A DNA stretch of 64,000 nt from Desulfosoma sp. (GTDB lineage Bacteria; Desulfobacterota; Syntrophobacteria; Syntrophobacterales; DSM-9756). The translations under genes were made by a program, and so were the position numbers. Positions 622-47,233 of the stretch are shown here, in pieces (positions within the stretch are counted from its first letter, which is position 1; each line of letters opens with the position of its first letter). The notes beneath the pieces are model-generated. The model saw only the letters and a list, made by a program, of their open reading frames with translations, did not search any database and had not been told where the DNA came from. The stretch lies in the NCBI GenBank assembly GCA_037481835.1, contig JBBFKW010000008.1:114512-178511 (forward strand), written 5' to 3'.

Positions 622-1176
622 ATGGAGAAAAAGCCCATGATCCGAAACGCGGTCTCCGAGGAGACGGCGCACACCTGGCCGGTGATGCCGGCGGCTCTGG
701 CCCTGGCGGGCATCATCGCCTTCATCTTCGCCACCTTCGGCCCCCCGGCCTCTTCCAGCGGGTTCGTAAGTCTCCTCAAGGGCTTTCTGGGGCCGATCCT
801 TCCCGACTACATCGCCCAAAAGGAACATTACCGGATCATCCCGGGGCCGGGCTCGTGGCTCTTCGCCTTCGTCCTGGGCATGGCGGCGGGCGGATTTCTT
901 GGCGGTCTCACCCTGGGAAAGCCCATTCAAAATGTTCCGGCCTTGTGGGAGCGGCGTTTCGGTGCGCGGCCGGCTCTTCGCTATGCCGTGTCCTTTTTGG
1001 GCGGCTTCCTCATCCTTTTCGGAGCGCGCCTGGCCGGCGGGTGCACCCTGGGGCTCTTCATTTCCGGATCCACCCAGCTCGCCGTAAGCGGCCTCTACTT
1101 CGGAGCGGTCATCTTCGTCGTCGCTATGATCACTGCCCGCCTGGTATACGGGTCTCCAAAGGGAGGAAAGAAATGA
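622..1176 (+). CDS. YeeE/YedE family sulfur-compound transporter component
   Basis: Hydrophobic, with motif FGARLAGGCT; GGAGG RBS at 607-611. Confidence 0.85.
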   Translation: MEKKPMIRNAVSEETAHTWPVMPAALALAGIIAFIFATFGPPASSSGFVSLLKGFLGPILPDYIAQKEHYRIIPGPGSWLFAFVLGMAAGGFLGGLTLGKPIQNVPALWERRFGARPALRYAVSFLGGFLILFGARLAGGCTLGLFISGSTQLAVSGLYFGAVIFVVAMITARLVYGSPKGGKK

Positions 1177-3765: not shown

Positions 3766-4141
3766 GGCCGAAACTCATTCCCAAGTTTTGAAAGATCTGG
3801 AGCCCTTTTTCCTGCACCCTAAAAAAACCCGGCGAACAAGAACAGCCGCGTCCCTGCGTTGATTTGGGAACCGACTGTACGGGAGTAACGGCATTCCAAC
3901 TCCCCACATGCGAAAAAAGACATTCCCGGTCAAGCGCCCAGCCGAAAGGCGACCCTGGGGCGCCGCACGCGTTGACACCGGACGGCTTTCGTTCCAAGGT
4001 AAGGGCTCGGGGTATCCGGTGAATGTTTCCCCTGTCTGCGTTTATTCGCGTTCGTTCGCGGTTCCCTTTGTCCCGACCGGCAGGGCGATCCGTTCGCTCT
4101 CCCGGAAAAGCCTTTTGGCCCACCGAGGAGACGACCCGCCC

Positions 4142-5380
4142 ATGACGCTCTTTCAGATCATCTCCATCCTCATCACCGTTTCAGCGCTCTTCAGCTATAT
4201 CAACCACCGGTTCATCCGCCTTCCCACCACCATCGGGGTCATGGCCATCTCGCTTCTGGGCTCCCTGGGGATCGTGGCAGCGGGCCCCTTTTCTTTCGGA
4301 CTGCAGCAGGAAGCGATCCGGCTCGTTCGGAGTATCGATTTCGATGAAACCGTGCTCCACGGCATGCTCAGTTTTCTCCTCTTCGCCGGAGCCCTCCACA
4401 TCGACCTGGAGGCCCTGGCCCGCCGAAAGTGGATCATCGCCGTCCTGGCCACCGTGGGAACGGCCTTGGCAACGGCCCTGAACGGCCTGGGCACCTGGGT
4501 CGTGTCCCAATGGCTCGATTTGCAGCTTCCCTTTCTCAGTTGCCTTCTTTTCGGGGCCCTTATCGCCCCGACGGACCCCATCGCGGTGCTGGGTATCCTG
4601 CGAAAGGCGGGCGTTCCCGAAAGCCTGGAGACCAAGATCTGCGGGGAGTCGCTCTTCAACGACGGGGTGGCCGTGGTGATCTTCATCATCCTCTTGGAAA
4701 CGACCCGGGATCCCGCGGCCGCCACCCTGTCCCACGTCCTGAGTCTCTTCGCCAAGGAAGCTTTGGGAGGCATCGCTTACGGCCTCGTGATCGGATGGAT
4801 CGCCTACCTCATGCTCAAGAGCATCGACGATTACCAGGTTGAAGTGCTCATCACCCTGGCGCTGGTGTCGGGAGGCTATGCGCTGGCCGATGCGCTGCAC
4901 ATCTCCGGGCCCATCGCCATCGTGGTGGCGGGCCTCCTCATCGGAAACCCCGGCCGCATGCTGGCCATGTCGGAACGAACCCGCCGGCACCTGGACACGT
5001 TCTGGGAACTGGTAGACGAGGTGCTGAACGTGGTGCTCTTCGTGCTCATCGGCCTGGAAGTGCTGGCTCTCGACTGGACCCGCCTCCACCTGGCAACGGG
5101 GCTCCTGCTGATCCCTTTGGTCCTCGCCTCCCGGCTTGTGAGCGTGTCGGTCCCCGTGGCCCTGCTGCGGCCCTTCCGAAGGTTCAGCCCGGGGGTCATC
5201 CGAATCCTCACCTGGGGGGGACTTCGCGGCGGCATCTCAGTGGCCATGGCCCTCTCGCTGCCTCCGGCGGCCGCGCGGGACACCATCCTGGCGGCCACCT
5301 ACGTGGTGGTGGTCTTTTCCATCCTCGTTCAAGGCCTCACGGTGGAAAAGGTGGTGCGCTCTGTGGAAGAGCGCGTCTAA
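4142..5380 (+). CDS. Na+/H+ antiporter, CPA1/NhaP family
   Basis: Multi-TM protein with PTDPIAV, GESLFNDG and WGGLRGGIS. Confidence 0.92.
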   Translation: MTLFQIISILITVSALFSYINHRFIRLPTTIGVMAISLLGSLGIVAAGPFSFGLQQEAIRLVRSIDFDETVLHGMLSFLLFAGALHIDLEALARRKWIIAVLATVGTALATALNGLGTWVVSQWLDLQLPFLSCLLFGALIAPTDPIAVLGILRKAGVPESLETKICGESLFNDGVAVVIFIILLETTRDPAAATLSHVLSLFAKEALGGIAYGLVIGWIAYLMLKSIDDYQVEVLITLALVSGGYALADALHISGPIAIVVAGLLIGNPGRMLAMSERTRRHLDTFWELVDEVLNVVLFVLIGLEVLALDWTRLHLATGLLLIPLVLASRLVSVSVPVALLRPFRRFSPGVIRILTWGGLRGGISVAMALSLPPAAARDTILAATYVVVVFSILVQGLTVEKVVRSVEERV

Positions 5381-36804: not shown

Positions 36805-38745
36805 TCAAAAGGCGATGCCGTCGTCACTCCAGCGAAAACTTTCCCCGTTCAGCACCAGCCTCTCCTTGGCAAACCACAGCGCCAAGTCTTCGCCTTCGTC
36901 GTCCTTCTTTTCCGGCTTGGATTCCTGCAGTTTCTCCGAGGCGCGTCCTTCGGAGGGGGGCGGCGCGGTGCGCTTGGAGTCGGTGAAAAGGAACGAGGAG
37001 TACTTGACGATTTTCGATTCCTGCTCTTCGGCGGGCACGATGGCCGTCGTAAAGATCATCTCGATCGTGTAGGCCTCCTTTGCGCTTCGGTCTTCGGCGA
37101 GCTTTTCCCGCATCAGGGACACGGCGATGCGCGCCTGCCGCTTCTTTTTGATGAACTTTTTCGTGGACAGCACATCCTTAAAGGTCAACACGGTGACCTC
37201 GGGATAATTGCGCAGCGGCGCCGTCTCCGAGGGCTGAAAGGTATGTTCCCCATCCTCGTCCATGAGACGCAGCTGCACGGTGAGGTTGTCCGCCATCCAA
37301 CGGGTCGGAAGCAGGAGCGCCAGATTGTCCCCTCGAAACACGTTCAGGGGGTTCAGCCATGATTTGTTTTCGGCAAGCAGGAGCACATGGTCGAATTCCC
37401 CTTGGATCCTTCGCAGGATGTCGCGGTTTCGCAGTTGTCCGTAGAGCCATAGGACATCGTAGTTTTTGATCTTATCGTTTTTCAGCACGGCGTCCATGAT
37501 GCGGTCGAACACGTCGCTTCGGGCGTCGAGCAGCAGAGCCGGTCCTAGAGCGCGCATCATTTCGGGATCTTCGATGAAGGTGAGATACCCGTTATCCAGG
37601 TTTCGCAGGATGAGTCGGCCGGCCGTGTCCTTGTCCCCGAGGCGCGCATAGTGCAAGGCGGCAAAAAGGATATTGCCCCAGTCTTCATCGTCGGAATTGG
37701 CTAGGACCACCTCCAGGTCCCGGCGGATTTGCGCCGGGGAGGCGTGTTGGACGGTGAGCATGATCTTGTGCATGGCGGTGGAGGCCGCAAAGGGGTCTTT
37801 CCTCAGGATCCCCTGGTGGATGCTTTGGAATTGGTTGAAGCAAAAAAGCGCCTCCTTGGCGTTGCCCATTTCATAGGCGGACTGGCCCCGGTAGTACCAA
37901 TAAGGCGGAAACTTCTGGAACGCGCTTTCCAGCCGTTCCAACTTGCGGTATCGGCGCTCGATGTCCGGTTCCTTGAGAATGGCCGTGTAGTCGCTGAGCT
38001 GTTTTTCATTGAGCCGCCATTCGTCGGGCAGCTGGTAGCGCCGCATCAAGTCCCAGGAATACTTGAGCAGCTTCTTGTAAAAATTGTTCAGGCCCTGGAG
38101 GGTGGCCGCCTCGATTTTCCACGCCGCCTCTTCCCGCTCCTTCTTGTAGTCGTCCATCCTGTCCCGGTAATTGAAATAGAACGAGCCCACGTTGAGCACC
38201 GCATTGAGGACGCCCATGTAGGGATTGAGGAGAAGGTCCGTTTCCAGGATCCGCTTTCGCAACCGCTTCCTGAGTTCGTTTTGCACGTTCTTTTCGTAGC
38301 TTCGGGAGAGCGCGGCGCGTTCGTGTTCCTGGATTTTGGAGGCGGTCAACAGGTCCATGAGTTCCTGGAGCAAGCTGATGATGTCGGCATCGGGGATTTT
38401 GTTGAGGTTCAAGTTGTTGATGATCGTGTTGTATTCCTGGTCCAGCACCACCTTGTCGTTGTAGGTGATGATGTGGGTCAGGGAGACGGCGATCTGGTTC
38501 AGAGCCTGCAGGACCTGAAGTTGGACGGAGCCTTCCTCCTGCGCCGCACCCGGCCGAGGCGGGCCCACATCGCACAGGCCCGCAGGCGCCGAAAACACTA
38601 TTGCGAGACACACAAAGAGGAGCTCACACCCCGGAAAAAGTCGTCGTCGAACAGTCCGTGCACGCCATCCCATCGTCTTGATTCCCTCCATCGCCACATT
38701 TGCGATCCATGAGCAGAGCTTCGTCTGTGCGGCGAAAAGATTCAT
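36805..38745 (-). CDS. Large exported alpha-helical/TPR hypothetical protein (start 38745 or 38673)
   Basis: Long ORF with a signal-like segment and TPR-like WYYRGQSAYEMG; ATGA overlap with the upstream regulator. Confidence 0.7.
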   Translation of the reverse strand: MNLFAAQTKLCSWIANVAMEGIKTMGWRARTVRRRLFPGCELLFVCLAIVFSAPAGLCDVGPPRPGAAQEEGSVQLQVLQALNQIAVSLTHIITYNDKVVLDQEYNTIINNLNLNKIPDADIISLLQELMDLLTASKIQEHERAALSRSYEKNVQNELRKRLRKRILETDLLLNPYMGVLNAVLNVGSFYFNYRDRMDDYKKEREEAAWKIEAATLQGLNNFYKKLLKYSWDLMRRYQLPDEWRLNEKQLSDYTAILKEPDIERRYRKLERLESAFQKFPPYWYYRGQSAYEMGNAKEALFCFNQFQSIHQGILRKDPFAASTAMHKIMLTVQHASPAQIRRDLEVVLANSDDEDWGNILFAALHYARLGDKDTAGRLILRNLDNGYLTFIEDPEMMRALGPALLLDARSDVFDRIMDAVLKNDKIKNYDVLWLYGQLRNRDILRRIQGEFDHVLLLAENKSWLNPLNVFRGDNLALLLPTRWMADNLTVQLRLMDEDGEHTFQPSETAPLRNYPEVTVLTFKDVLSTKKFIKKKRQARIAVSLMREKLAEDRSAKEAYTIEMIFTTAIVPAEEQESKIVKYSSFLFTDSKRTAPPPSEGRASEKLQESKPEKKDDEGEDLALWFAKERLVLNGESFRWSDDGIAF

Positions 38746-39869
38746 GGCACATCCCCTGCTGCCTGAGACCACGAGGTCGGCAGAGATCCGTACCCATGGA
38801 GCACGACGGCGTTGGCCGAAAAGACGGCCCAGGCCCATGCGCCTTCCTTGAGCTTCATTCGGTCGGCGCTTTCCGCCGTAATGACGGCACAGAGCTCCGT
38901 CCCGTCGGAAAGTTCCACGGTGACTTCGGCCGTCACCGTGCCCCGAAGGAGGCGCCGGATCGTGCCCCGAAATCGGTTCTCGGCGCTTAACTCTGGTTCT
39001 TCGGGCCCCGAACCGAGAACGACCCACGGGGCCTTGACTTCCGCAACCATGTATTTTCCTTCCTCGATGGCGAGACGCTGGAGGCTGTCGGCGGTGATCA
39101 CCGTGATGATCCTATGGCCGCCAAGCGTCTCCAGGTGCACCTCCGCCTGAATGTCTCCCCGATGGACGGCCTTCACTCGACCGAAAAAAGCATTTCGGGC
39201 GCTGGTCCGCCCGGTGGATTCCCTTTCGAGGAAAAGCTTCATCACCTGGCGGATGTCGTCCTGGGAAAAAGAAACATAGCTCGTGCCGACGGCAGGCGTC
39301 CCGTACCCGAGAACCCTCTGGACGACGGGAAGGGGGATGTGCCCCTTGAGGAGTTCCACGGCTCTCGCTTTGCGGATCATTTCGGGGCTGCCCAAGCCTT
39401 TGGGAAACCCGCAGGCGTGCGCCCTTTCGTAAAACTTTCGGCGCACGAAGGCGGCATCCAAGGCGAGTGGCCCACGGAACCGGGCCGTGAGGTCGGGGGA
39501 GTCCACAAGGGACCGAATTTCGCCGAGCACCCGTCTCGCCACGTCCACGGTGCGGGATGAAGGGCCTTTGGCCCCGGGACCTCCTCGAAAAAGCACGCAT
39601 TGATTTTCCCAGTCGATATCTCGAGACGGGTCCAGACGAAGAACTTCATTGAGCTTCGCGCCCGTGTGGCGGATGAGGAGGAAAATGAGATAAACCCGAG
39701 AGCGGGAAAGGCGATGGGCGGCGGATTCCTGAGCCCACCGGCGGAAGGATTCTTCCAGGCGCTCCAAGGCCGGGGGATCCAAAACCCTGGTGCGGTCCAA
39801 AGGGGCCGCGGCCGAGCGGCCCGACGGCCCTTTCTCGGCGCTTTTGTTCCCGCTGTCAGTCCCGCTCAT
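38742..39869 (-). CDS. TunR-family regulator: degenerate tyrosine-recombinase domain plus tandem TOBE domains
   Basis: LIRHTGAKLNEVL, PEMIRKARAVELL and VQRVLGY..TSY, then TSARNAFFG and LSAENRFRG TOBE motifs. Confidence 0.85.
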   Translation of the reverse strand: MSGTDSGNKSAEKGPSGRSAAAPLDRTRVLDPPALERLEESFRRWAQESAAHRLSRSRVYLIFLLIRHTGAKLNEVLRLDPSRDIDWENQCVLFRGGPGAKGPSSRTVDVARRVLGEIRSLVDSPDLTARFRGPLALDAAFVRRKFYERAHACGFPKGLGSPEMIRKARAVELLKGHIPLPVVQRVLGYGTPAVGTSYVSFSQDDIRQVMKLFLERESTGRTSARNAFFGRVKAVHRGDIQAEVHLETLGGHRIITVITADSLQRLAIEEGKYMVAEVKAPWVVLGSGPEEPELSAENRFRGTIRRLLRGTVTAEVTVELSDGTELCAVITAESADRMKLKEGAWAWAVFSANAVVLHGYGSLPTSWSQAAGDVP

Positions 39870-40103
39870 GCAACCCTTATCCCTTGCCCGTGCCTCATTT
39901 CCGGGGCGCCCCCTCTCCCCCGCCTTCAGAAACCGCCTCGATGCCGAAAGGCTGCCTTCTTTGGGAGTGCATGTCCTTCGGCCCCGCAGCGCCGCCAGAC
40001 CCCCTTGCGGCGCTCTTATGTACCACAACCGGCAAGGCGGCCGCCAGAGGCAGCGGGGCGGCCTCTTTTGGATCTTGACGCAGGGGGCCTGCGAAGGCTA
40101 GAT

Positions 40104-41176: not shown

Positions 41177-41611
41177 TCAGGATTTTACCTGCCGGGACAC
41201 CATGTCTTCCTTTGCGGCCTGGACCATGGCGACGACAAACCGAGCGCCTTCCCGCGCCTCCCGGGCATCATCCAGACCGTATTCTTCCGTGGGGATGAAG
41301 TCGATGTCCCCGGAGAAGGCCAGTTCGCGTTCCTTGCGCAGCTTCTTGGAAATGCGCGCCGCCGCAGGAATCCGTGAGGCCACTTCGGGGCAGAAGCGAT
41401 GGGCATGCTCCATGAGCAACCCGCCCACATCGTGATACTTGGGAGGTTCCACACCGGCAAAACGCAAAAGCCCTTTAAGAGCCAGTTCGACGATTTCTTG
41501 CGCCTCCCGAACCACGTCCGAATAGGCTCCCTTGCCCATGAGAAGGTCCGGAATATCCAGGCGATCGATCGCCTTGCGCAGACAGCTTTCGGCGAGGGTG
41601 AGATTCGTCAT
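41177..41611 (-). CDS. HEPN domain protein
   Basis: AQEIVELALKG, PPKYHDV and RKERELAF; downstream of MNT. Confidence 0.85.
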   Translation of the reverse strand: MTNLTLAESCLRKAIDRLDIPDLLMGKGAYSDVVREAQEIVELALKGLLRFAGVEPPKYHDVGGLLMEHAHRFCPEVASRIPAAARISKKLRKERELAFSGDIDFIPTEEYGLDDAREAREGARFVVAMVQAAKEDMVSRQVKS

Positions 41612-41613
41612 GG

Positions 41614-42123
41614 CTAGAGCTCAAAGATTTCGCCCGGCTTGTAGTCCGGTTTGAGGTCCCAGTACCACGCACTTCCCTGACGAATGCGCTTGGCTCCGAG
41701 CACCTTCAACCGTTCGGCAAGGCGTGTTAAAACTTTTCGGAAAAAGTCGTCGCGGTCGAACAAAATCCTTGCATCTTCCACCATGTCGAGAAAAAGGGGG
41801 GATCCCGCCAAAGCCTCGTCGGGCGTCTTGAAGACGACGGAAATGGGCATGGATTCCGGCTCCGCTGCCGAAATGCCCAAGGATCCCCACAAGGCTTCCT
41901 CCACCGCATCGAATTCTTCCTGGCGTTTCATGCGTCCCCGGGGCAACCCCGTGGCGATGAGGAACACGTCCAAGTCGGATTCGCCGTGGTGGGTGCCTCG
42001 CGCCACCGATCCGTAGAGGACCAAGGAGACCAATCGATCCCCGTAATGGCGCAGGCACTGGGCCAACAGAGCCTCCGTCAACGCCTTTATGGACTCTTGG
42101 TCCCGCCCGAGTTCTTTCGTCAT
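41614..42123 (-). CDS. Minimal nucleotidyltransferase (MNT) of a HEPN/MNT toxin-antitoxin pair
   Basis: LYGSVARG...SDLDV (GSX10DXD). Confidence 0.88.
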   Translation of the reverse strand: MTKELGRDQESIKALTEALLAQCLRHYGDRLVSLVLYGSVARGTHHGESDLDVFLIATGLPRGRMKRQEEFDAVEEALWGSLGISAAEPESMPISVVFKTPDEALAGSPLFLDMVEDARILFDRDDFFRKVLTRLAERLKVLGAKRIRQGSAWYWDLKPDYKPGEIFEL

Positions 42124-42290
42124 GGTCCCCCTTTCATGAACCGGTGCCTGCGGTTTTTCCCATCCGGATGGCTTTCTTTTTCACCATACTCAACCGGCGC
42201 CGAAAGGAAAGAGTCCGTCCATGGCTTTTGGGCTCATGGGGAGCCGTTGACATGGGGACGGGTTTTTTATACATGATATGCACGTTCGAA

Positions 42291-42352
42291 AGGCAATGAA
42301 GTCTGCCTGAACCGCCCCTGCCTCGCACGGCGTGGGGATGATGACTTCTCCA
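42291..42352 (+). ncRNA. Fluoride (crcB-motif) riboswitch aptamer
   Basis: GGCAATGAAGTCTGCC-TGAACCGCCCC...GGGGATGATGACTTCT; P1 GGCA/TGCC and pseudoknot GAAGTC(42298-42303)/GACTTC(42343-42348); TTGACA upstream at 42247. Confidence 0.85.
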
Positions 42353-42436
42353 CGGCGGTGGCGGTTGCCCATGGACGGCAACCGTCCTTCCGACCTGCGG
42401 GCGGGGTTGCGGGCGTGCACTCGTTGTTTCCGGAAG

Positions 42437-42470
42437 AAACCCCATCCGCAGGGGCGGATGGGGTTTTTTT
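42437..42470 (+). terminator. Leader intrinsic terminator (riboswitch expression platform)
   Basis: AAACCCCATCCGC-AGGG-GCGGATGGGGTTT-TTTT, 28 nt before the dynamin start. Confidence 0.85.
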
Positions 42471-42498
42471 GTGGGAACACCCTCAGGAGGACACGGCG

Positions 42499-44286
42499 AT
42501 GCTGGAAAGTTACCGACACATGCAGGCGCGGCTTCTCAACGTCTTGGAAGACATGAGGACCCTGAAAAGGGAAAACCTGGACGACGCTCTCGTGGGCAGG
42601 GTCGACGAATTGGCGGAAAAAATCCGCCAAAGCGCTTTTTACCTTGTGGTGCTCGGAGAATTCAAGCGGGGCAAGAGCACCCTGGTCAACGCCATCCTCA
42701 AGGACAACCTTCTTCCGACGGCCGTGGTGCCGCTCACCTCCATCGTGACCATGATCCGCTACGGCCCCGATGAAGAAATCCTCGTTCGGTTCAAGGATGG
42801 ACGAACGGAGTCCATCCATCGGGGCCGACTGGCCGACTACGTCACCGAAAAAGGCAACCCGGACAACGCCAAGGGCGTGGACCGCGTGGAAATCGCCTAT
42901 CCGGCGGAAACCCTCCGCGGAGGCGTCCACCTCATCGACACGCCGGGGGTGGGATCCATTTTCGAAACCAACACGCAGGCCACTTACGATTTTCTGCCCA
43001 AGGTGGATGCAGCCCTGTTCCTGTTCACCGCGGATCCGCCCATCAGCCAATCGGAACTGGCCTTTCTGCGGGACGTGCGCCAGTACGTCACCAAGATCTT
43101 TTTCGTCCAAAACAAGATCGACGTCGTGGATCCCGAGGATCGGGAAGAGTCCCTGGAATTTTCCAAACAGGTGCTCAAGGACGTCATCGGCGACGGCGAG
43201 ATCCGGATCTTGCCCCTGTCCGCCAAGCTCGCCCTGGAAGGCCGGCTCAAAGAAGATCCTGCGAAAATCTCCCAGAGCTACTTTCCCCGGCTGGAAGAGG
43301 TCCTCACGCGGTTTCTCACGCAGGAGAAGGGGCGGGTGCTGCTCCAGTCCGCCGTCCAAGCGGCGCGCAAGATCCTCAACGATGTGGAATTTTCCGTCCA
43401 ACTGGAACAGAAAGCCATCGAAATGCCGCTCCAGGACCTGGAACAGAGGATCGCCCTGTTTCAGAAAGAACTCCAAAAGATCCGACGAGACCGCGAAGAA
43501 AACGGCTATTACTTCGAAGCTGAAATCAAGCGGATCATGGCCTGGTTGGACCGGGAACTGGAACGGCTCCAAAAGGACCATCTGCCGGAACTCATGGAAG
43601 AGCTGCGCCGGGAGGGAGAAAAAAACCAACATCTGCCCGTGTCCCGATACGTGGAAAAGATGGAAAGCGTGCTCAACGAAGGCATCGTCCACACCTTCGA
43701 CGACTGGATCGTCGCACAAGAGAAAGCCTTGAACGAAGAATTCGCCCGCGTCTCCCGACAATACTCGGACCGGACCAACCAGGTCATCGAACGCCTCATT
43801 CAGGCGTCGGCCAAGCTCTTTGACATCCCCTTCGAAACCATCCAAACGGACGAAGCCTTGCGGGCCGACAGCCGCTTTTATTATCTCCTTGGAGACCCAC
43901 CCCGATTTTTTGACATCGCCGGTGCGGTGGATTTCTTCTCCCGAAAGCTCATGCCCAAGAGCTTCTCCCAGAAGAAGGTCTTGAGCGACCTCATGAAGAA
44001 ACTGCCGGAACGGATCGATGCCAACTGCGGACGCGTCCGCTCCGATTTCATGCGCCGTCTGCAGGAAAGTTTTCTCGCCTTCCGCTGGAACCTGAACGCC
44101 AAGATCGACACCACGGCCCAAGGCATCCAGGACGCGTTGGACAAGGCCGTCGCCATGCAAAAGGCCGGGGCGGCCGAAAGGGACCGGAAGAAGGCCTTGC
44201 TCGGCGAAGAGATGCGCGGCATAGTGGCGATCAAAGGAGCCTTGAACCGGATCGCCGAGGACATCGCGTCAGCCGATGTGACATAA
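42499..44286 (+). CDS. Bacterial dynamin-like GTPase
   Basis: G1 GEFKRGKS, LPTAVVPLT, G3 DTPG, G4 NKID and a helical C-terminus; AGGAGG RBS. Confidence 0.9.
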   Translation: MLESYRHMQARLLNVLEDMRTLKRENLDDALVGRVDELAEKIRQSAFYLVVLGEFKRGKSTLVNAILKDNLLPTAVVPLTSIVTMIRYGPDEEILVRFKDGRTESIHRGRLADYVTEKGNPDNAKGVDRVEIAYPAETLRGGVHLIDTPGVGSIFETNTQATYDFLPKVDAALFLFTADPPISQSELAFLRDVRQYVTKIFFVQNKIDVVDPEDREESLEFSKQVLKDVIGDGEIRILPLSAKLALEGRLKEDPAKISQSYFPRLEEVLTRFLTQEKGRVLLQSAVQAARKILNDVEFSVQLEQKAIEMPLQDLEQRIALFQKELQKIRRDREENGYYFEAEIKRIMAWLDRELERLQKDHLPELMEELRREGEKNQHLPVSRYVEKMESVLNEGIVHTFDDWIVAQEKALNEEFARVSRQYSDRTNQVIERLIQASAKLFDIPFETIQTDEALRADSRFYYLLGDPPRFFDIAGAVDFFSRKLMPKSFSQKKVLSDLMKKLPERIDANCGRVRSDFMRRLQESFLAFRWNLNAKIDTTAQGIQDALDKAVAMQKAGAAERDRKKALLGEEMRGIVAIKGALNRIAEDIASADVT

Positions 44287-44485
44287 CCCTAAAGAGGGAC
44301 AGATCTCGCTGGGATGGGGGATAAGGGGATTTGTGCACGGGGTCGCTGCGCTCGACCCAACATCCTCGGGACATCGCTGACGCCCGGGGCCGGCCGTGAG
44401 GGTATCGCCCCGAAGGGGCACGGGATCCAAGCCCGGGCGAAGCCATAGGTTCTGGGATGGGAATCGTTGAAAACGGAGGTTTTTC

Positions 44486-45970
44486 ATGGCGATCAGTTTG
44501 GCTTTGATCATCGTCCTGGGTCTTTTTGCGGACTACGTCTTCAAGAAGCTGAAACTGCCGGGCCTTGTCGGCATGCTCTTGGTGGGCATCCTGGTCGGTC
44601 CCTATGTTCTGGGCCTCATGCGCCCGGAAATGATGCAAGTTTCCGCCGACTTTCGAAAGATCGCCCTGATCGTCATCCTGCTTCGGGCGGGCTTTGAGCT
44701 TCACAGGGACACCCTCAACCGCGTGGGCCGCGCGGCCTTGACCATGAGCGCCGTGCCGGCCATGTTCGAAATCCTCGGGGTCATGCTGGTCGCTCCCAAG
44801 TGGTTGGGCATAAGCCTTCTGGAAGCCGCCATGCTCGGCGCCATCTTGGGGGCCGTCTCCCCCGCCGTCGTCGTGCCGCTCATGATCGACTACATGGATC
44901 GGGGTCTGGGATTAAAAAAAGGCGTCCCCACCTTGATCTTGGGGGCCTCGTCCGTGGATGACGTTTTCGTCATCGTGCTTTTCACCATCTTCCTTGGCAT
45001 GTACGGCGGCGGCTCGGTCAACGTCTGGGCCAAGCTGGCCGAAATTCCCATTTCCATCGTCCTCGGCATCCTCGTGGGGGCGATCCCAGGCTATCTTCTC
45101 TACAAACTGTTTACGACCTACGACTGGAAACCGCCCAAGAGGACCCTCGTCGTCCTGGGGGTTTCCATCGTGCTCACCTGGCTGGAATCGGCCGTGGAAC
45201 ATTGGGTTCCCGTGGCGAGCCTCCTGGGGGTCATGGCCATCGGGTTCGTCATTCTGGAAAAGGCGGAACCCATCGCCCACCTCATTTCCCAAAAGCTGAA
45301 AAAGCTTTGGGTCTTCGCCGAGTTGCTGCTGTTCGTCCTCGTCGGGGCCCAGGTGAACATCCACGTGGCGTGGAAGGCGGGCCTGGCGGGCACGGCCGTC
45401 ATTTTTGTGGGCCTGATCTTCCGCAGCCTCGGCACCTGGGTGTCCCTGTGGGGAACGCCTCTGAACTGGAAGGAAAAAGTCTTCTGCGTGGTCTCTTACA
45501 TCCCCAAGGCCACCGTGCAGGCGGCCATCGGCGCCGTGCCCATGGCCGCCGGGGTGGCTGCCGGCGAAGTCATCCTTGCCGTGGCCGTCCTCTCCATCAT
45601 CCTCACCGCCCCGCTGGGCGCCATCGGCATCATGCTCCTCGGGGACAAGTGCCTGGACAAGGGAGACGTGAGCCCTTACCGGTTCAAGGAACTGAGGGCC
45701 AAGCTGGATCTGCCGCGTGTCGGGGAACGCGTGCGCAGCAAACGCTACGGCACGGTGTGGAAGATCATCGAAGAGAAAGAAACGTGGATCCCGGTTCCGG
45801 AGCATCTGGCCGGGTCGGTTTTTCCCGACGGCAAAATGCCCGCCATCATCATCCGTTTCTGGAAGGAAGGCAGCTCCAAAGGCCCCGGCACGGGCAAAAC
45901 CATGACATACCGCTACAGCCAGCTGGATCCTTCCTTCCAGGAACACTGGGAAGTGCTCTACGACTGGTAG
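44486..45970 (+). CDS. Cation:proton antiporter (CPA1, NHA2-like) with soluble C-terminal extension
   Basis: AVSPAVVVP, SSVDDVF and PKATVQAAIG. Confidence 0.9.
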   Translation: MAISLALIIVLGLFADYVFKKLKLPGLVGMLLVGILVGPYVLGLMRPEMMQVSADFRKIALIVILLRAGFELHRDTLNRVGRAALTMSAVPAMFEILGVMLVAPKWLGISLLEAAMLGAILGAVSPAVVVPLMIDYMDRGLGLKKGVPTLILGASSVDDVFVIVLFTIFLGMYGGGSVNVWAKLAEIPISIVLGILVGAIPGYLLYKLFTTYDWKPPKRTLVVLGVSIVLTWLESAVEHWVPVASLLGVMAIGFVILEKAEPIAHLISQKLKKLWVFAELLLFVLVGAQVNIHVAWKAGLAGTAVIFVGLIFRSLGTWVSLWGTPLNWKEKVFCVVSYIPKATVQAAIGAVPMAAGVAAGEVILAVAVLSIILTAPLGAIGIMLLGDKCLDKGDVSPYRFKELRAKLDLPRVGERVRSKRYGTVWKIIEEKETWIPVPEHLAGSVFPDGKMPAIIIRFWKEGSSKGPGTGKTMTYRYSQLDPSFQEHWEVLYDW

Positions 45971-46410
45971 CCGCTCAGGGCGGCGTCATGGATCCATCGC
46001 TGGAGTTCGGAAGCGTCCATGGCGCCGGACCGGCGCGCCAGTTCTTTCCCCCGTCGAAAAATCACCACCGTGGGAATGCTTCGAATGGCGTAGCGGGACG
46101 CGAGAGCCGGTTCTTCTTCCGTGTTGACCTTGAGGAAGCGCACATGAGGTTCCAGGTGCCGCGCGGCTGATTCGAAGGCCGGCGCCATCATGCGGCACGG
46201 ACCGCACCACGGCGCCCAAAAATCCACCACCACGGGAACATGGGAACGGCTGACGTGCTTTTCGAAAGCCGAAGCGGTCACGCTCACAGGACGTCCCGAA
46301 AACAACGGCGCCGAACATCGGCCGCACTTGGGTCCCTGCCCCATGCGGTTTCCATCCACACGATTGACCGCCTCACACTGGGGACAAACCACATGCACCG
46401 CATCTTTCAT
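45958..46410 (-). CDS. trxC: Thioredoxin 2 with zinc-finger N-terminus
   Basis: CPQC...CGRC plus WAPWCGPC. Confidence 0.93.
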   Translation of the reverse strand: MKDAVHVVCPQCEAVNRVDGNRMGQGPKCGRCSAPLFSGRPVSVTASAFEKHVSRSHVPVVVDFWAPWCGPCRMMAPAFESAARHLEPHVRFLKVNTEEEPALASRYAIRSIPTVVIFRRGKELARRSGAMDASELQRWIHDAALSGYQS

Positions 46411-46501
46411 CGTCGTTTTCACCTCCCGAACCGGATCCCCCTTCACCGGGACCTTGGGCTTTCGCCCCGCCGGCGCACGGCCTCTTGCCCGGCGACTGCG
46501 C

Positions 46502-47233
46502 CTAGCCCGCATCCGCCATCTGCGTTGAAAACCGCCCGTAAGGCAAGGCCACGGTGGCTTTCCAAATCGCTGAGGGATTGTCCGCCAGAGTCCACACCTG
46601 AACCGCGGCTCTTTCGAGAACGTGCGGTTTTCCCATAACGACCGTCACCGCCACATTCCACAACTGGACGGATCGCCGTCCCAGGGGCGTGGCCAGTTCT
46701 TCACGCCGCCCCGGGATCGTGCGCACTTCGAACACCCTCCTGCCGTCCGTGACAAAAAACGGCCCTTGGTTTTCCGAAGCGCCGAGAAACCGATGGACCG
46801 CCCCCAGGGGATCCAAGGTTCCCTGAGGCACGTGCAGCGTGCGGCGAAGCCTTCCGTTTTTAAAGACATCCACGGTGATCGTGCCTTCCTGCCCGGCGGT
46901 TTTGACGTCGCCGAAAACGAGGAGTTCCGTCTTTTCCTTGCCGCGCCCTTCCCGGGTTTTTTCCCGATAGCGCTGCGCCGCCAATCCGTCCGCGACCAGC
47001 AAAGACTCGGCGTCGAACGTGACGGGATAGAAGGCATCCATGAGCGCCTCGGTTCGGCCCGTGAGTGTGACCACGGTGCGGCCTTCCGAACGGGCGCAGT
47101 GCACGTCGGCTTTTCCTGCAGGCACACCGTTCCAAAAGATGCTATAAGAAAGGCTCCGACATGGGCCGTCGGATGGCGACCCGCTTTCGGTCCAGGCCTT
47201 CATCGGGCGGCCCATGACAATGAGAAGTGCCAT
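46502..47233 (-). CDS. DUF3108-like exported protein (start uncertain)
   Basis: LSYSIFWNGVPAG, FYPV, TLDPLGA and EELATPLG. Confidence 0.6.
   Translation of the reverse strand: MALLIVMGRPMKAWTESGSPSDGPCRSLSYSIFWNGVPAGKADVHCARSEGRTVVTLTGRTEALMDAFYPVTFDAESLLVADGLAAQRYREKTREGRGKEKTELLVFGDVKTAGQEGTITVDVFKNGRLRRTLHVPQGTLDPLGAVHRFLGASENQGPFFVTDGRRVFEVRTIPGRREELATPLGRRSVQLWNVAVTVVMGKPHVLERAAVQVWTLADNPSAIWKATVALPYGRFSTQMADAG

Follow-up and report, generated by a model that had tools for sequence, protein, structure and literature searches.

A fluoride riboswitch ahead of a dynamin-like GTPase gene and an NHA2-like antiporter gene in Desulfosoma

Why would a bacterium keep a gene for a dynamin-like GTPase behind a fluoride riboswitch? 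The question is raised by a stretch of Desulfosoma sp. DNA of 64,000 nucleotides (nt) (GenBank assembly GCA_037481835.1, contig JBBFKW010000008.1, positions 114,512 to 178,511; the whole stretch is called the window below, and positions are counted within it), in which an aptamer of the fluoride class is followed on the same strand by genes for a dynamin-like GTPase (P0002) and a cation/proton antiporter (P0001). The reading we favour, with a probability of roughly 60%, is that of a transcriptional ON switch responding to fluoride, which would govern an operon of a BDLP/IniA-type dynamin-like GTPase and, most likely, an NHA2-like antiporter, and would serve the protection of the membrane and of pH and ion balance. 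The pairing of riboswitch and dynamin gene recurs in most relatives of P0002 across many phyla. The elements of the leader and the first gene are the following.

42247-42252, plus strand: TTGACA hexamer, possible -35 element of a leader promoter, read directly from the sequence
42283-42357, plus strand: Fluoride riboswitch aptamer RF01734, Rfam match of 38.7 bits to the full model
42360-42386, plus strand: hairpin of 10 base pairs (bp), 42360-42369/42377-42386, from folding, between the aptamer and the antiterminator strand
42394-42411, plus strand: switching strand, with the P3 5' strand or the terminator 5' arm as alternative partners
42433-42470, plus strand: intrinsic terminator, 17-bp stem 42433-42449/42454-42470, AGGG loop, U7 tract 42464-42470
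42485-42490, plus strand: ribosome-binding site AGGAGG, read directly, 8 nt before ATG 42499
42499-44286, plus strand: gene of the dynamin-like GTPase P0002, BDLP/IniA type, 595 amino acids (aa), Pfam Dynamin_N

That the RNA at the head of this locus is a genuine fluoride-riboswitch aptamer is well supported. A preliminary description of the window had placed a crcB-type aptamer at 42291-42352, and the covariance-model check returned an RF01734 match that encloses it, covers model positions 1-64 of 64 and scores 38.7 bits, the gathering score being 34 (whole-window E 3.5e-7, and E 2.5e-8 for the same match in a local search of 41900-46600). Fluoride is the single riboswitch in the whole-window Rfam scan, and no further Rfam match was found in 41900-46600 even at a permissive E<=1. 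P1 is formed by 42292-42295/42304-42307 on the plus strand, the pseudoknot strands GAAGUC (42298-42303) and GACUUC (42343-42348) are intact and fully complementary, and P3 (42315-42322/42329-42337) is a stem extended to 8 bp, as allowed by inserted nucleotides; in the model alignment it consists of three canonical pairs and one non-canonical outer pair, a G-A mismatch at the P3 base.

As the pseudoknot does not enter the Rfam score, covariation within it provides an independent check of these aptamers. Across 55 dynamin-linked aptamers, pairing in P1 and the pseudoknot together amounts to 99.8%, with both-side changes in 7 of their 10 pairs, and the covariation score was reached by none of 500 shuffles; the pseudoknot alone is 99.7% paired, and 4 of its 6 pairs covary. 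The window aptamer retains every invariant column of this 55-sequence alignment, the A-U variant of its pseudoknot is found in 29 of the 55 relatives, and it is an ordinary member of the known class.

The pairing of this aptamer with a dynamin gene is no peculiarity of Desulfosoma. A search seeded with an alignment of 19 relatives confirmed 572 dynamin relatives in the genome collection, and we took as the comparative sample the best 80 of these 572 loci, picked on protein similarity alone (29-57% identity) and scanned with the Rfam Fluoride model RF01734 at its gathering threshold. The model gave 84 matches in 61 of the 80 loci. Setting aside one truncated locus (L011), 79 could be assessed for an upstream riboswitch, and 54 of them have a riboswitch of their own in the same orientation no more than 320 nt ahead of the dynamin start (with a single exception, no more than 189 nt), a strongly positive outcome of the survey of riboswitch-dynamin synteny proposed in the preliminary description. 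Five more of the 79 have a riboswitch 880-2770 nt upstream, with MFS, CrcB or DUF6062/Usp genes in between. The riboswitch-positive loci include members of Deltaproteobacteria/Desulfobacterales, of Syntrophobacteraceae, of Rhodospirillaceae and other Proteobacteria, of the Bacillota Thermovenabulum, Fervidicola, Desulforudis, Desulfosporosinus and Heliobacteriaceae, and also of Actinomycetes, Bacteroidetes, Kryptoniota, Calditrichia and Synergistaceae. On a neighbour-joining tree of the dynamins (Biopython, without support values), positives are scattered over nearly all clades, and those that lack the riboswitch are chiefly the cyanobacterial/Obscuribacter and Dehalococcoidia clades, together with some branches of the Bacillota. 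A riboswitch-dynamin pair was also seen at 453-2415 of L072, a contig of 4.5 kb assigned by binning to a Methanobacteriota archaeon, and is either an archaeal case or a mis-binned bacterial contig.

How could the aptamer control the gene? Between aptamer and start codon, folding returned the hairpin that had been described at about 42360-42386 as a 10-bp stem, possibly a spacer or pause element, and the strong terminator, earlier placed at 42437-42470, as the stem 42433-42449/42454-42470, with a dG of -23.9 kcal/mol, lying 80 nt downstream of the aptamer and before ATG 42499. The 198-nt leader folds far better than its shuffles (z -6.4, with 0 of 200 as good). Step-wise folding of the growing transcript reveals four mutually exclusive helices, which agrees with the multi-state platform suggested before and is consistent with an ON switch. 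When the transcript ends at 42412, the unconstrained minimum free energy (MFE) structure pairs 42313-42330, the P3 5' strand, with 42394-42411 in an anti-antiterminator state, at -68.1 kcal/mol versus -49.0 kcal/mol with the aptamer enforced, the latter value leaving out the energy of the pseudoknot and the ligand. At 42453 the MFE structure pairs 42394-42407 with 42439-42452, in keeping with the antiterminator that had been proposed between 42394-42408 and 42438-42452, and at 42458 it contains an 8-bp helix from the complementarity between 42312-42321 and 42448-42457, which is exact over 10 nt, as had been noted. In the MFE structure of the full-length leader the terminator is formed.

The leaders of the relatives show how the window design departs from the usual one. 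A terminator-like hairpin with a T-run precedes the start codon in 42 of the 55 dynamin leaders, and in most of these the terminator 5' arm begins 13-23 nt inside the aptamer 3' end, the canonical ON design; in Weinberg 2010, too, terminators overlap the crcB motif and the ligand should raise expression. A distal terminator, 57-80 nt further on, is seen in the window as well as in L001, L004 and L007-L010, and a distance of this size means that a relay is needed.

We propose the following relay, whose direction and kinetic order of folding are those that the alternative helices would allow. Without fluoride, the P3 5' strand (42313-42330) would pair with the switching strand (42394-42411), the terminator at 42433-42470 would then form, and transcription would end before ATG 42499. 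With fluoride, the aptamer, bound to Mg2+ and fluoride, would keep P3 and the pseudoknot closed, and the freed switching strand could pair with the terminator 5' arm (42439-42452), allowing RNA polymerase to read through; in the canonical relatives, the ligand-stabilised pseudoknot would itself withhold the terminator arm. Ligand dependence we infer from the riboswitch family. A thermodynamic proof of antitermination was sought and rejected, since the terminator persists with the aptamer enforced and the antiterminator appears at 42453 in both states; as folding is the same in both states, the calculations show the feasibility of the switch and not its dependence on the ligand.

Several observations weigh against the picture of a fluoride-responsive relay ahead of a membrane-protective dynamin. 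The score of 38.7 bits is not far above the cut-off, and P3 includes one non-canonical pair; the terminator stays in the full-length MFE structure although the aptamer is enforced, and the antiterminator is the MFE structure at 42453 whether it is enforced or not. A simple consensus terminator scan did not list the terminator at 42433-42470, a discrepancy with the folding, and beyond the aptamer, L001-L003 and L064 show no sequence conservation of the window's relay platform. No upstream riboswitch was found in 20 of the 79 relatives, although L012 and L043, both among the 20, do have one in the vicinity. On the protein side, the loop that could serve as the membrane paddle of P0002 is not confidently modelled, with a pLDDT (predicted local distance difference test score) below 50 over aa 446-469.

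At the 5' end of the leader, the TTGACA hexamer is followed by an AT-rich stretch at 42264-42279 (plus strand). A consensus promoter scan called no sigma-70 promoter at the leader, and the hexamer is thus taken as a candidate -35 element only. A weak hairpin followed by a T-run (CCGTTGACATGGGGACGG then GTTTTTTATA) at 42244-42270 (plus strand) overlaps this candidate just 5' of the aptamer, and no co-oriented gene ends there.

The first gene behind the switch encodes a GTPase of BDLP/IniA type. That a dynamin gene and a co-oriented antiporter gene lie downstream, as first described, is borne out by the domain searches, with Dynamin_N at 4e-24 in P0002 (85.9 bits against a cut-off of 27) and Na_H_Exchanger at 2.5e-48 in P0001. 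Close relatives of P0002 are named 'dynamin family protein' and occur in Desulfosoma with 87% identity, which places the window in a Desulfosoma-like member of the Thermodesulfobacteriota. The G domain of P0002 occupies roughly aa 45-245 and leads into a helical neck and trunk, and the G1-G4 motifs, namely GxxxxGKS (the P-loop), the switch-I Thr80, DTPG and NKxD, show no variation among 76 sequences. A further motif, E117-x2-N120-P121-x-N123 (window 42847-42867), marks the subfamily; it lies in the G domain, is invariant in all 76 aligned members and falls where the phmmer alignment to Nostoc BDLP has no matching residues.

In addition to the sequence comparisons, we have examined an AlphaFold2 (AF2) model of P0002 (pLDDT 82.7, predicted template-modelling score 0.68), which contains long helices at aa 277-440 and 487-594. 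The top Foldseek matches are BDLP (2j69, 2.2e-22) and IniA (6j72, 3.4e-20), with a template-modelling score of ~0.46, and next come the Campylobacter pair of dynamin-like proteins (DLPs), SynDLP and the mitofusins. Between the two long helices the model has a non-helical, low-confidence loop, rich in aromatic and hydrophobic residues (aa 441-486), at the position of the BDLP paddle, and this loop is a candidate membrane paddle. P0002 showed no hydrophobic segment of transmembrane grade and fits no NCBIfam equivalog. DynA was tried as an orthologue and rejected, the NCBIfam DynA model giving 74 bits against a cut-off of 1600.

What does the second gene contribute, and does it belong to the same transcript? 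The features in question are these.

44287-44485, plus strand: intergenic gap between the dynamin and antiporter genes, 199 nt
44486-45970, plus strand: gene of the cation/proton antiporter P0001, 494 aa, Pfam Na_H_Exchanger
45671-45967, plus strand: small, beta-rich C-terminal cytoplasmic domain of P0001, aa 396-494, AF2 pLDDT 88.9

The Na_H_Exchanger membrane domain of P0001 spans aa 10-380 and scores 165.2 bits against a cut-off of 26.2. The preliminary description had called this protein a CPA1 antiporter. As a rule, an ND as opposed to a DD motif at the transport site separates CPA1 from NHA2-type antiporters, and in P0001 the transport-site DD (within SVDDV) and the segment PKATVQAAIG align with NHA2. 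The nearest solved relative is NHA2/SLC9B2 (8e-41 over aa 23-393), NhaP (7e-8) and NapA being far weaker; the NCBIfam CPA2 and NhaP2 models are far below their cut-offs, and homologues carry the conflicting public names 'CPA1 family', 'NhaP-type' and 'SLC9B'. The CPA1 label is therefore not accepted here, on account of the nearest relative, the DD motif and the conflicting names, even though some public annotations use it. The transport earlier suggested for the module was of cations and protons, or of fluoride; the family membership agrees with a cation/proton antiporter, and the fluoride part is left without support.

The C-terminal domain of P0001 (aa 396-494) has no match in Pfam, in the Atlas or among PDB folds (best E 0.17), and it is conserved in 221 antiporters of ~494 aa. 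Two loci have it as a small separate gene next to the dynamin gene, at 4277-4621 (minus strand) of L021 and 3913-4140 (plus strand) of L051. Another Na_H_Exchanger gene lies at 3908-5380 (plus strand, 1.8e-59) of the window without a riboswitch, which brings the number of such antiporters in the organism to two or more, with only one of them behind a fluoride switch.

Co-transcription of the antiporter with the dynamin gene appears probable to us: the antiporter would be made by readthrough of the 199-nt gap, in which neither a terminator-like site nor a promoter-like site (consensus scans) nor an Rfam match (E<=1) was found, and which folds no better than its shuffles (z -0.21). A second, degenerate riboswitch or another known RNA in the gap was considered and rejected, since none appears at E<=1. 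An arrangement in which the riboswitch governs the dynamin gene alone and the antiporter has its own promoter in the gap, outside the fluoride response of this locus, is unlikely, yet it deserves serious attention. The gap is long compared with that of ~57 nt in L004, and in Desulfacinum hydrothermale the antiporter homologue (P0124) and the dynamin (L002) are apart, on contigs that differ in length (92848 and 244026). Moreover, the antiporter subfamily of the window is found at full length in three loci, after the dynamin gene in L004 and behind riboswitches of its own in L025 and L045, whereas the window antiporter has none. Such a promoter is hard to reconcile with a gap that is free of any promoter-like site, terminator-like site or structured element, and with the dynamin-then-exchanger tandem, which the window shares with four other loci (L004, L031, L047 and L050) and which involves two exchanger subfamilies, those of L031, L047 and L050 being of another subfamily than that of the window. 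The known cargo of fluoride riboswitches speaks for co-regulation as well, Na+/H+ antiporters being a leading class, indeed the second most common one, and thought to counter acidification, according to PMC11139923. In the operon that we favour, the antiporter would offset the acidification and ion imbalance accompanying the entry of HF.

As for the GTPase, 'membrane remodelling under fluoride stress' is a reading suggested by its protein family. We favour membrane maintenance, given that membrane surveillance and a delay of lysis are on record for DynA (PMC8844932) and that fluoride makes bacteria of diverse kinds lyse (PMC12700350). Once induced, the GTPase might use its paddle loop to attach to the cytoplasmic membrane, which it would stabilise or reseal under fluoride stress, in a protective role that would be analogous to those of DynA and IniA under envelope stress.

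The same invariant G motifs could point to another role. Fluoride complexes are known to trap GTPases: as mimics of the GTP transition state, MgF3- and AlF4- would poison the enzyme, and the cell would simply make more of it. Under this explanation the GTPase is induced to offset its own inhibition by fluoride, as enolase and pyrophosphatase would be, and fluoride does not damage the membrane. The explanation draws on the invariance of the catalytic motifs and on the presence of enolase and phosphatases, known fluoride targets, as riboswitch cargo in the same loci and in the review PMC11139923. It is nevertheless rather improbable, because 54 of 79 members have a fluoride switch of their own, which makes the subfamily look dedicated to fluoride rather than a topped-up housekeeping enzyme, and because the literature searches, judged mainly on titles and the starts of abstracts, yielded no other GTPase as riboswitch cargo.

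The membrane-protective reading also has a stronger version, which we offer tentatively, as a possibility that falls short of an even chance: the riboswitch-linked dynamins may form an ancient and dedicated arm of the fluoride-resistance regulon that has gone unrecognised so far, a membrane remodelling or repair machine needed for survival in fluoride. In a bolder form still, GDP-MgF3- or AlF4- might lock the G domains of P0002 in a dimerised, membrane-tethering state, and the protein itself would be fluoride-responsive. If the dynamins are such a dedicated arm, damage to the cytoplasmic membrane would be a primary lesion of fluoride toxicity.

It is very improbable that the window aptamer is decaying or re-purposed and unresponsive to fluoride, with a terminator that is constitutive or under another signal, for although its score exceeds the cut-off by only 4.7 bits, its P3 carries a G-A mismatch at the base and an unusually long insertion, and its terminator stands 80 nt away, unlike those of most relatives, the pseudoknot is perfectly complementary in a widely shared A-U variant (29 of 55 relatives), all invariant alignment columns are retained, and the aptamers of L001, L004 and L007-L010, which also have distal terminators, score 40.2-56.8 bits.

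Beyond the dynamin gene itself, the relatives place the riboswitch of the window among loci with a recognisable fluoride character. There is no constant partner gene: the 525 neighbour open reading frames (ORFs) of the sampled dynamin loci fall into 410 clusters, the largest of which covers 12 loci. The recurrent neighbours are classic fluoride-regulon families, namely MFS (12 loci), Na_H_Exchanger in two subfamilies (9 and 5 loci), DUF6062 (8), enolase (7), DUF190/CBS (7), CrcB (6 of the 80), Proton_antipo_M (5), Usp (5), MutS_V-only proteins (4) and NADHdh (Hyc-like; 3). The dynamin gene is often the first of a tandem, and besides the exchangers the second place is taken by CrcB (L036), by MFS (L012, L038, L042) or by DUF6062 (L037, L046, L054). 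Further riboswitches in these loci head genes for CrcB, MFS, enolase, Na_H_Exchanger, DUF6062, NADHdh/Hyc-like, MutS_V and His_Phos_1 proteins.

Many of the loci are 'fluoride islands' with 2-4 Fluoride riboswitches in ~10 kb, often as divergent pairs (L015, L017, L020, L024, L025, L029 and L037, and further L038, L045, L048, L060, L074, L076 and L077); riboswitches in such islands also head HEAT-repeat genes and two ORFs without a Pfam match (L020 2230-3132 and L037 4057-4521). Riboswitches of other classes were seen as well: an M-box (Mg2+) riboswitch lies just 3' of the L021 dynamin gene (L021 4758-4935, plus strand) and a TPP riboswitch at 756-860 (minus strand) of L007.

In the window, the locus is flanked upstream by a nucleotidyltransferase/HEPN pair, divergent from the riboswitch, and downstream by a convergent gene for a TrxC-type thioredoxin. 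The HEPN gene (41177-41611) and the nucleotidyltransferase gene (41614-42123), both on the minus strand, resemble a toxin-antitoxin pair of MntA/HepT type, with weak NCBIfam MntA and HalB matches. The window ORFs come from a crude rule that takes the longest frame, with a minimum of 90 aa, and that, for example, chose an antisense ORF over the dynamin gene; among the 69 ORFs so obtained and scanned for domains, none carries CRCB or Voltage_CLC, in agreement with the earlier statement that crcB and eriC are absent from the window. Two TOBE domains (4e-30) and a weak Phage_integrase match stand together in the minus-strand ORF at 38742-40028, an odd mix that is possibly an artefact of ORF calling.

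The association of fluoride riboswitches with antiporters is already known, and the conserved linkage to a subfamily of dynamin-like GTPases is apparently undescribed, not having been met in the searchable literature. Full-text searches, whose coverage left out Baker 2012 and McIlwain 2021 with their gene lists and supplements, returned no paper linking fluoride riboswitches to dynamins, and the main text and 8 of the 10 supplementary files of Weinberg 2010 contain no mention of 'dynamin', 'GTPase' or 'COG0699'. Among papers on bacterial dynamins that mention fluoride, none concerns a fluoride response as far as titles and the starts of abstracts tell, and the literature on dynamin-like proteins and riboswitches holds none on fluoride.

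Bacterial DLPs are widespread, and their inducing signals and physiological roles are mostly unknown; here, one subfamily found in many phyla bears an RNA sensor specific for fluoride, and the addition of NaF offers a ready experimental handle on an orphan membrane-remodelling GTPase. To the fluoride stress response, made up until now of exporters, pH homeostasis and enzymes of the enolase/pyrophosphatase type, a membrane-integrity component would be added, at a time when the cause of fluoride-triggered lysis is still under study. A further outcome is a corrected family placement for the neighbouring antiporter, at whose C-terminus a small, new domain has come to light.

Compared with the known crcB/eriC-F fluoride riboswitches (RF01734), the window RNA shares P1, P3, the pseudoknot and the conserved loop and tail nucleotides, and it likewise lies in a 5'-untranslated region with an intrinsic terminator as its expression platform. 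It differs in its first cargo, a dynamin-like GTPase instead of an exporter, in the extension of P3 to 8 bp, and in a terminator which does not overlap the aptamer but stands 80 nt off and would be reached through a helix relay with a 10-bp spacer hairpin. The antiporter resembles NHA2/SLC9B2 and the bacterial NapA-type (CPA2-like) proteins; P0001 is itself bacterial and has an extra beta-rich C-terminal domain of 99 aa.

The GTPase shares its G domain, helical neck and trunk, and tip loop with Nostoc punctiforme BDLP (2j68/2j69) and Mycobacterium IniA (6j72), to which phmmer relates it with E-values of 2.5e-30 and 2e-14, although it is only 17-20% identical to them. Most bacterial DLP genes are paired in operons, according to PMC6104087, whereas the dynamin gene of the window is single. 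Bacillus subtilis DynA, a dynamin-superfamily GTPase involved in membrane surveillance and lysis delay (PMC8844932), offers a functional analogy for P0002, but is a two-headed fusion unlike it. IniA is, like P0002, a single-chain DLP of ~600 aa, and it is called 'isoniazid inducible' in its PDB entry name; for P0002, we propose that the inducing signal is fluoride, acting through an RNA switch.

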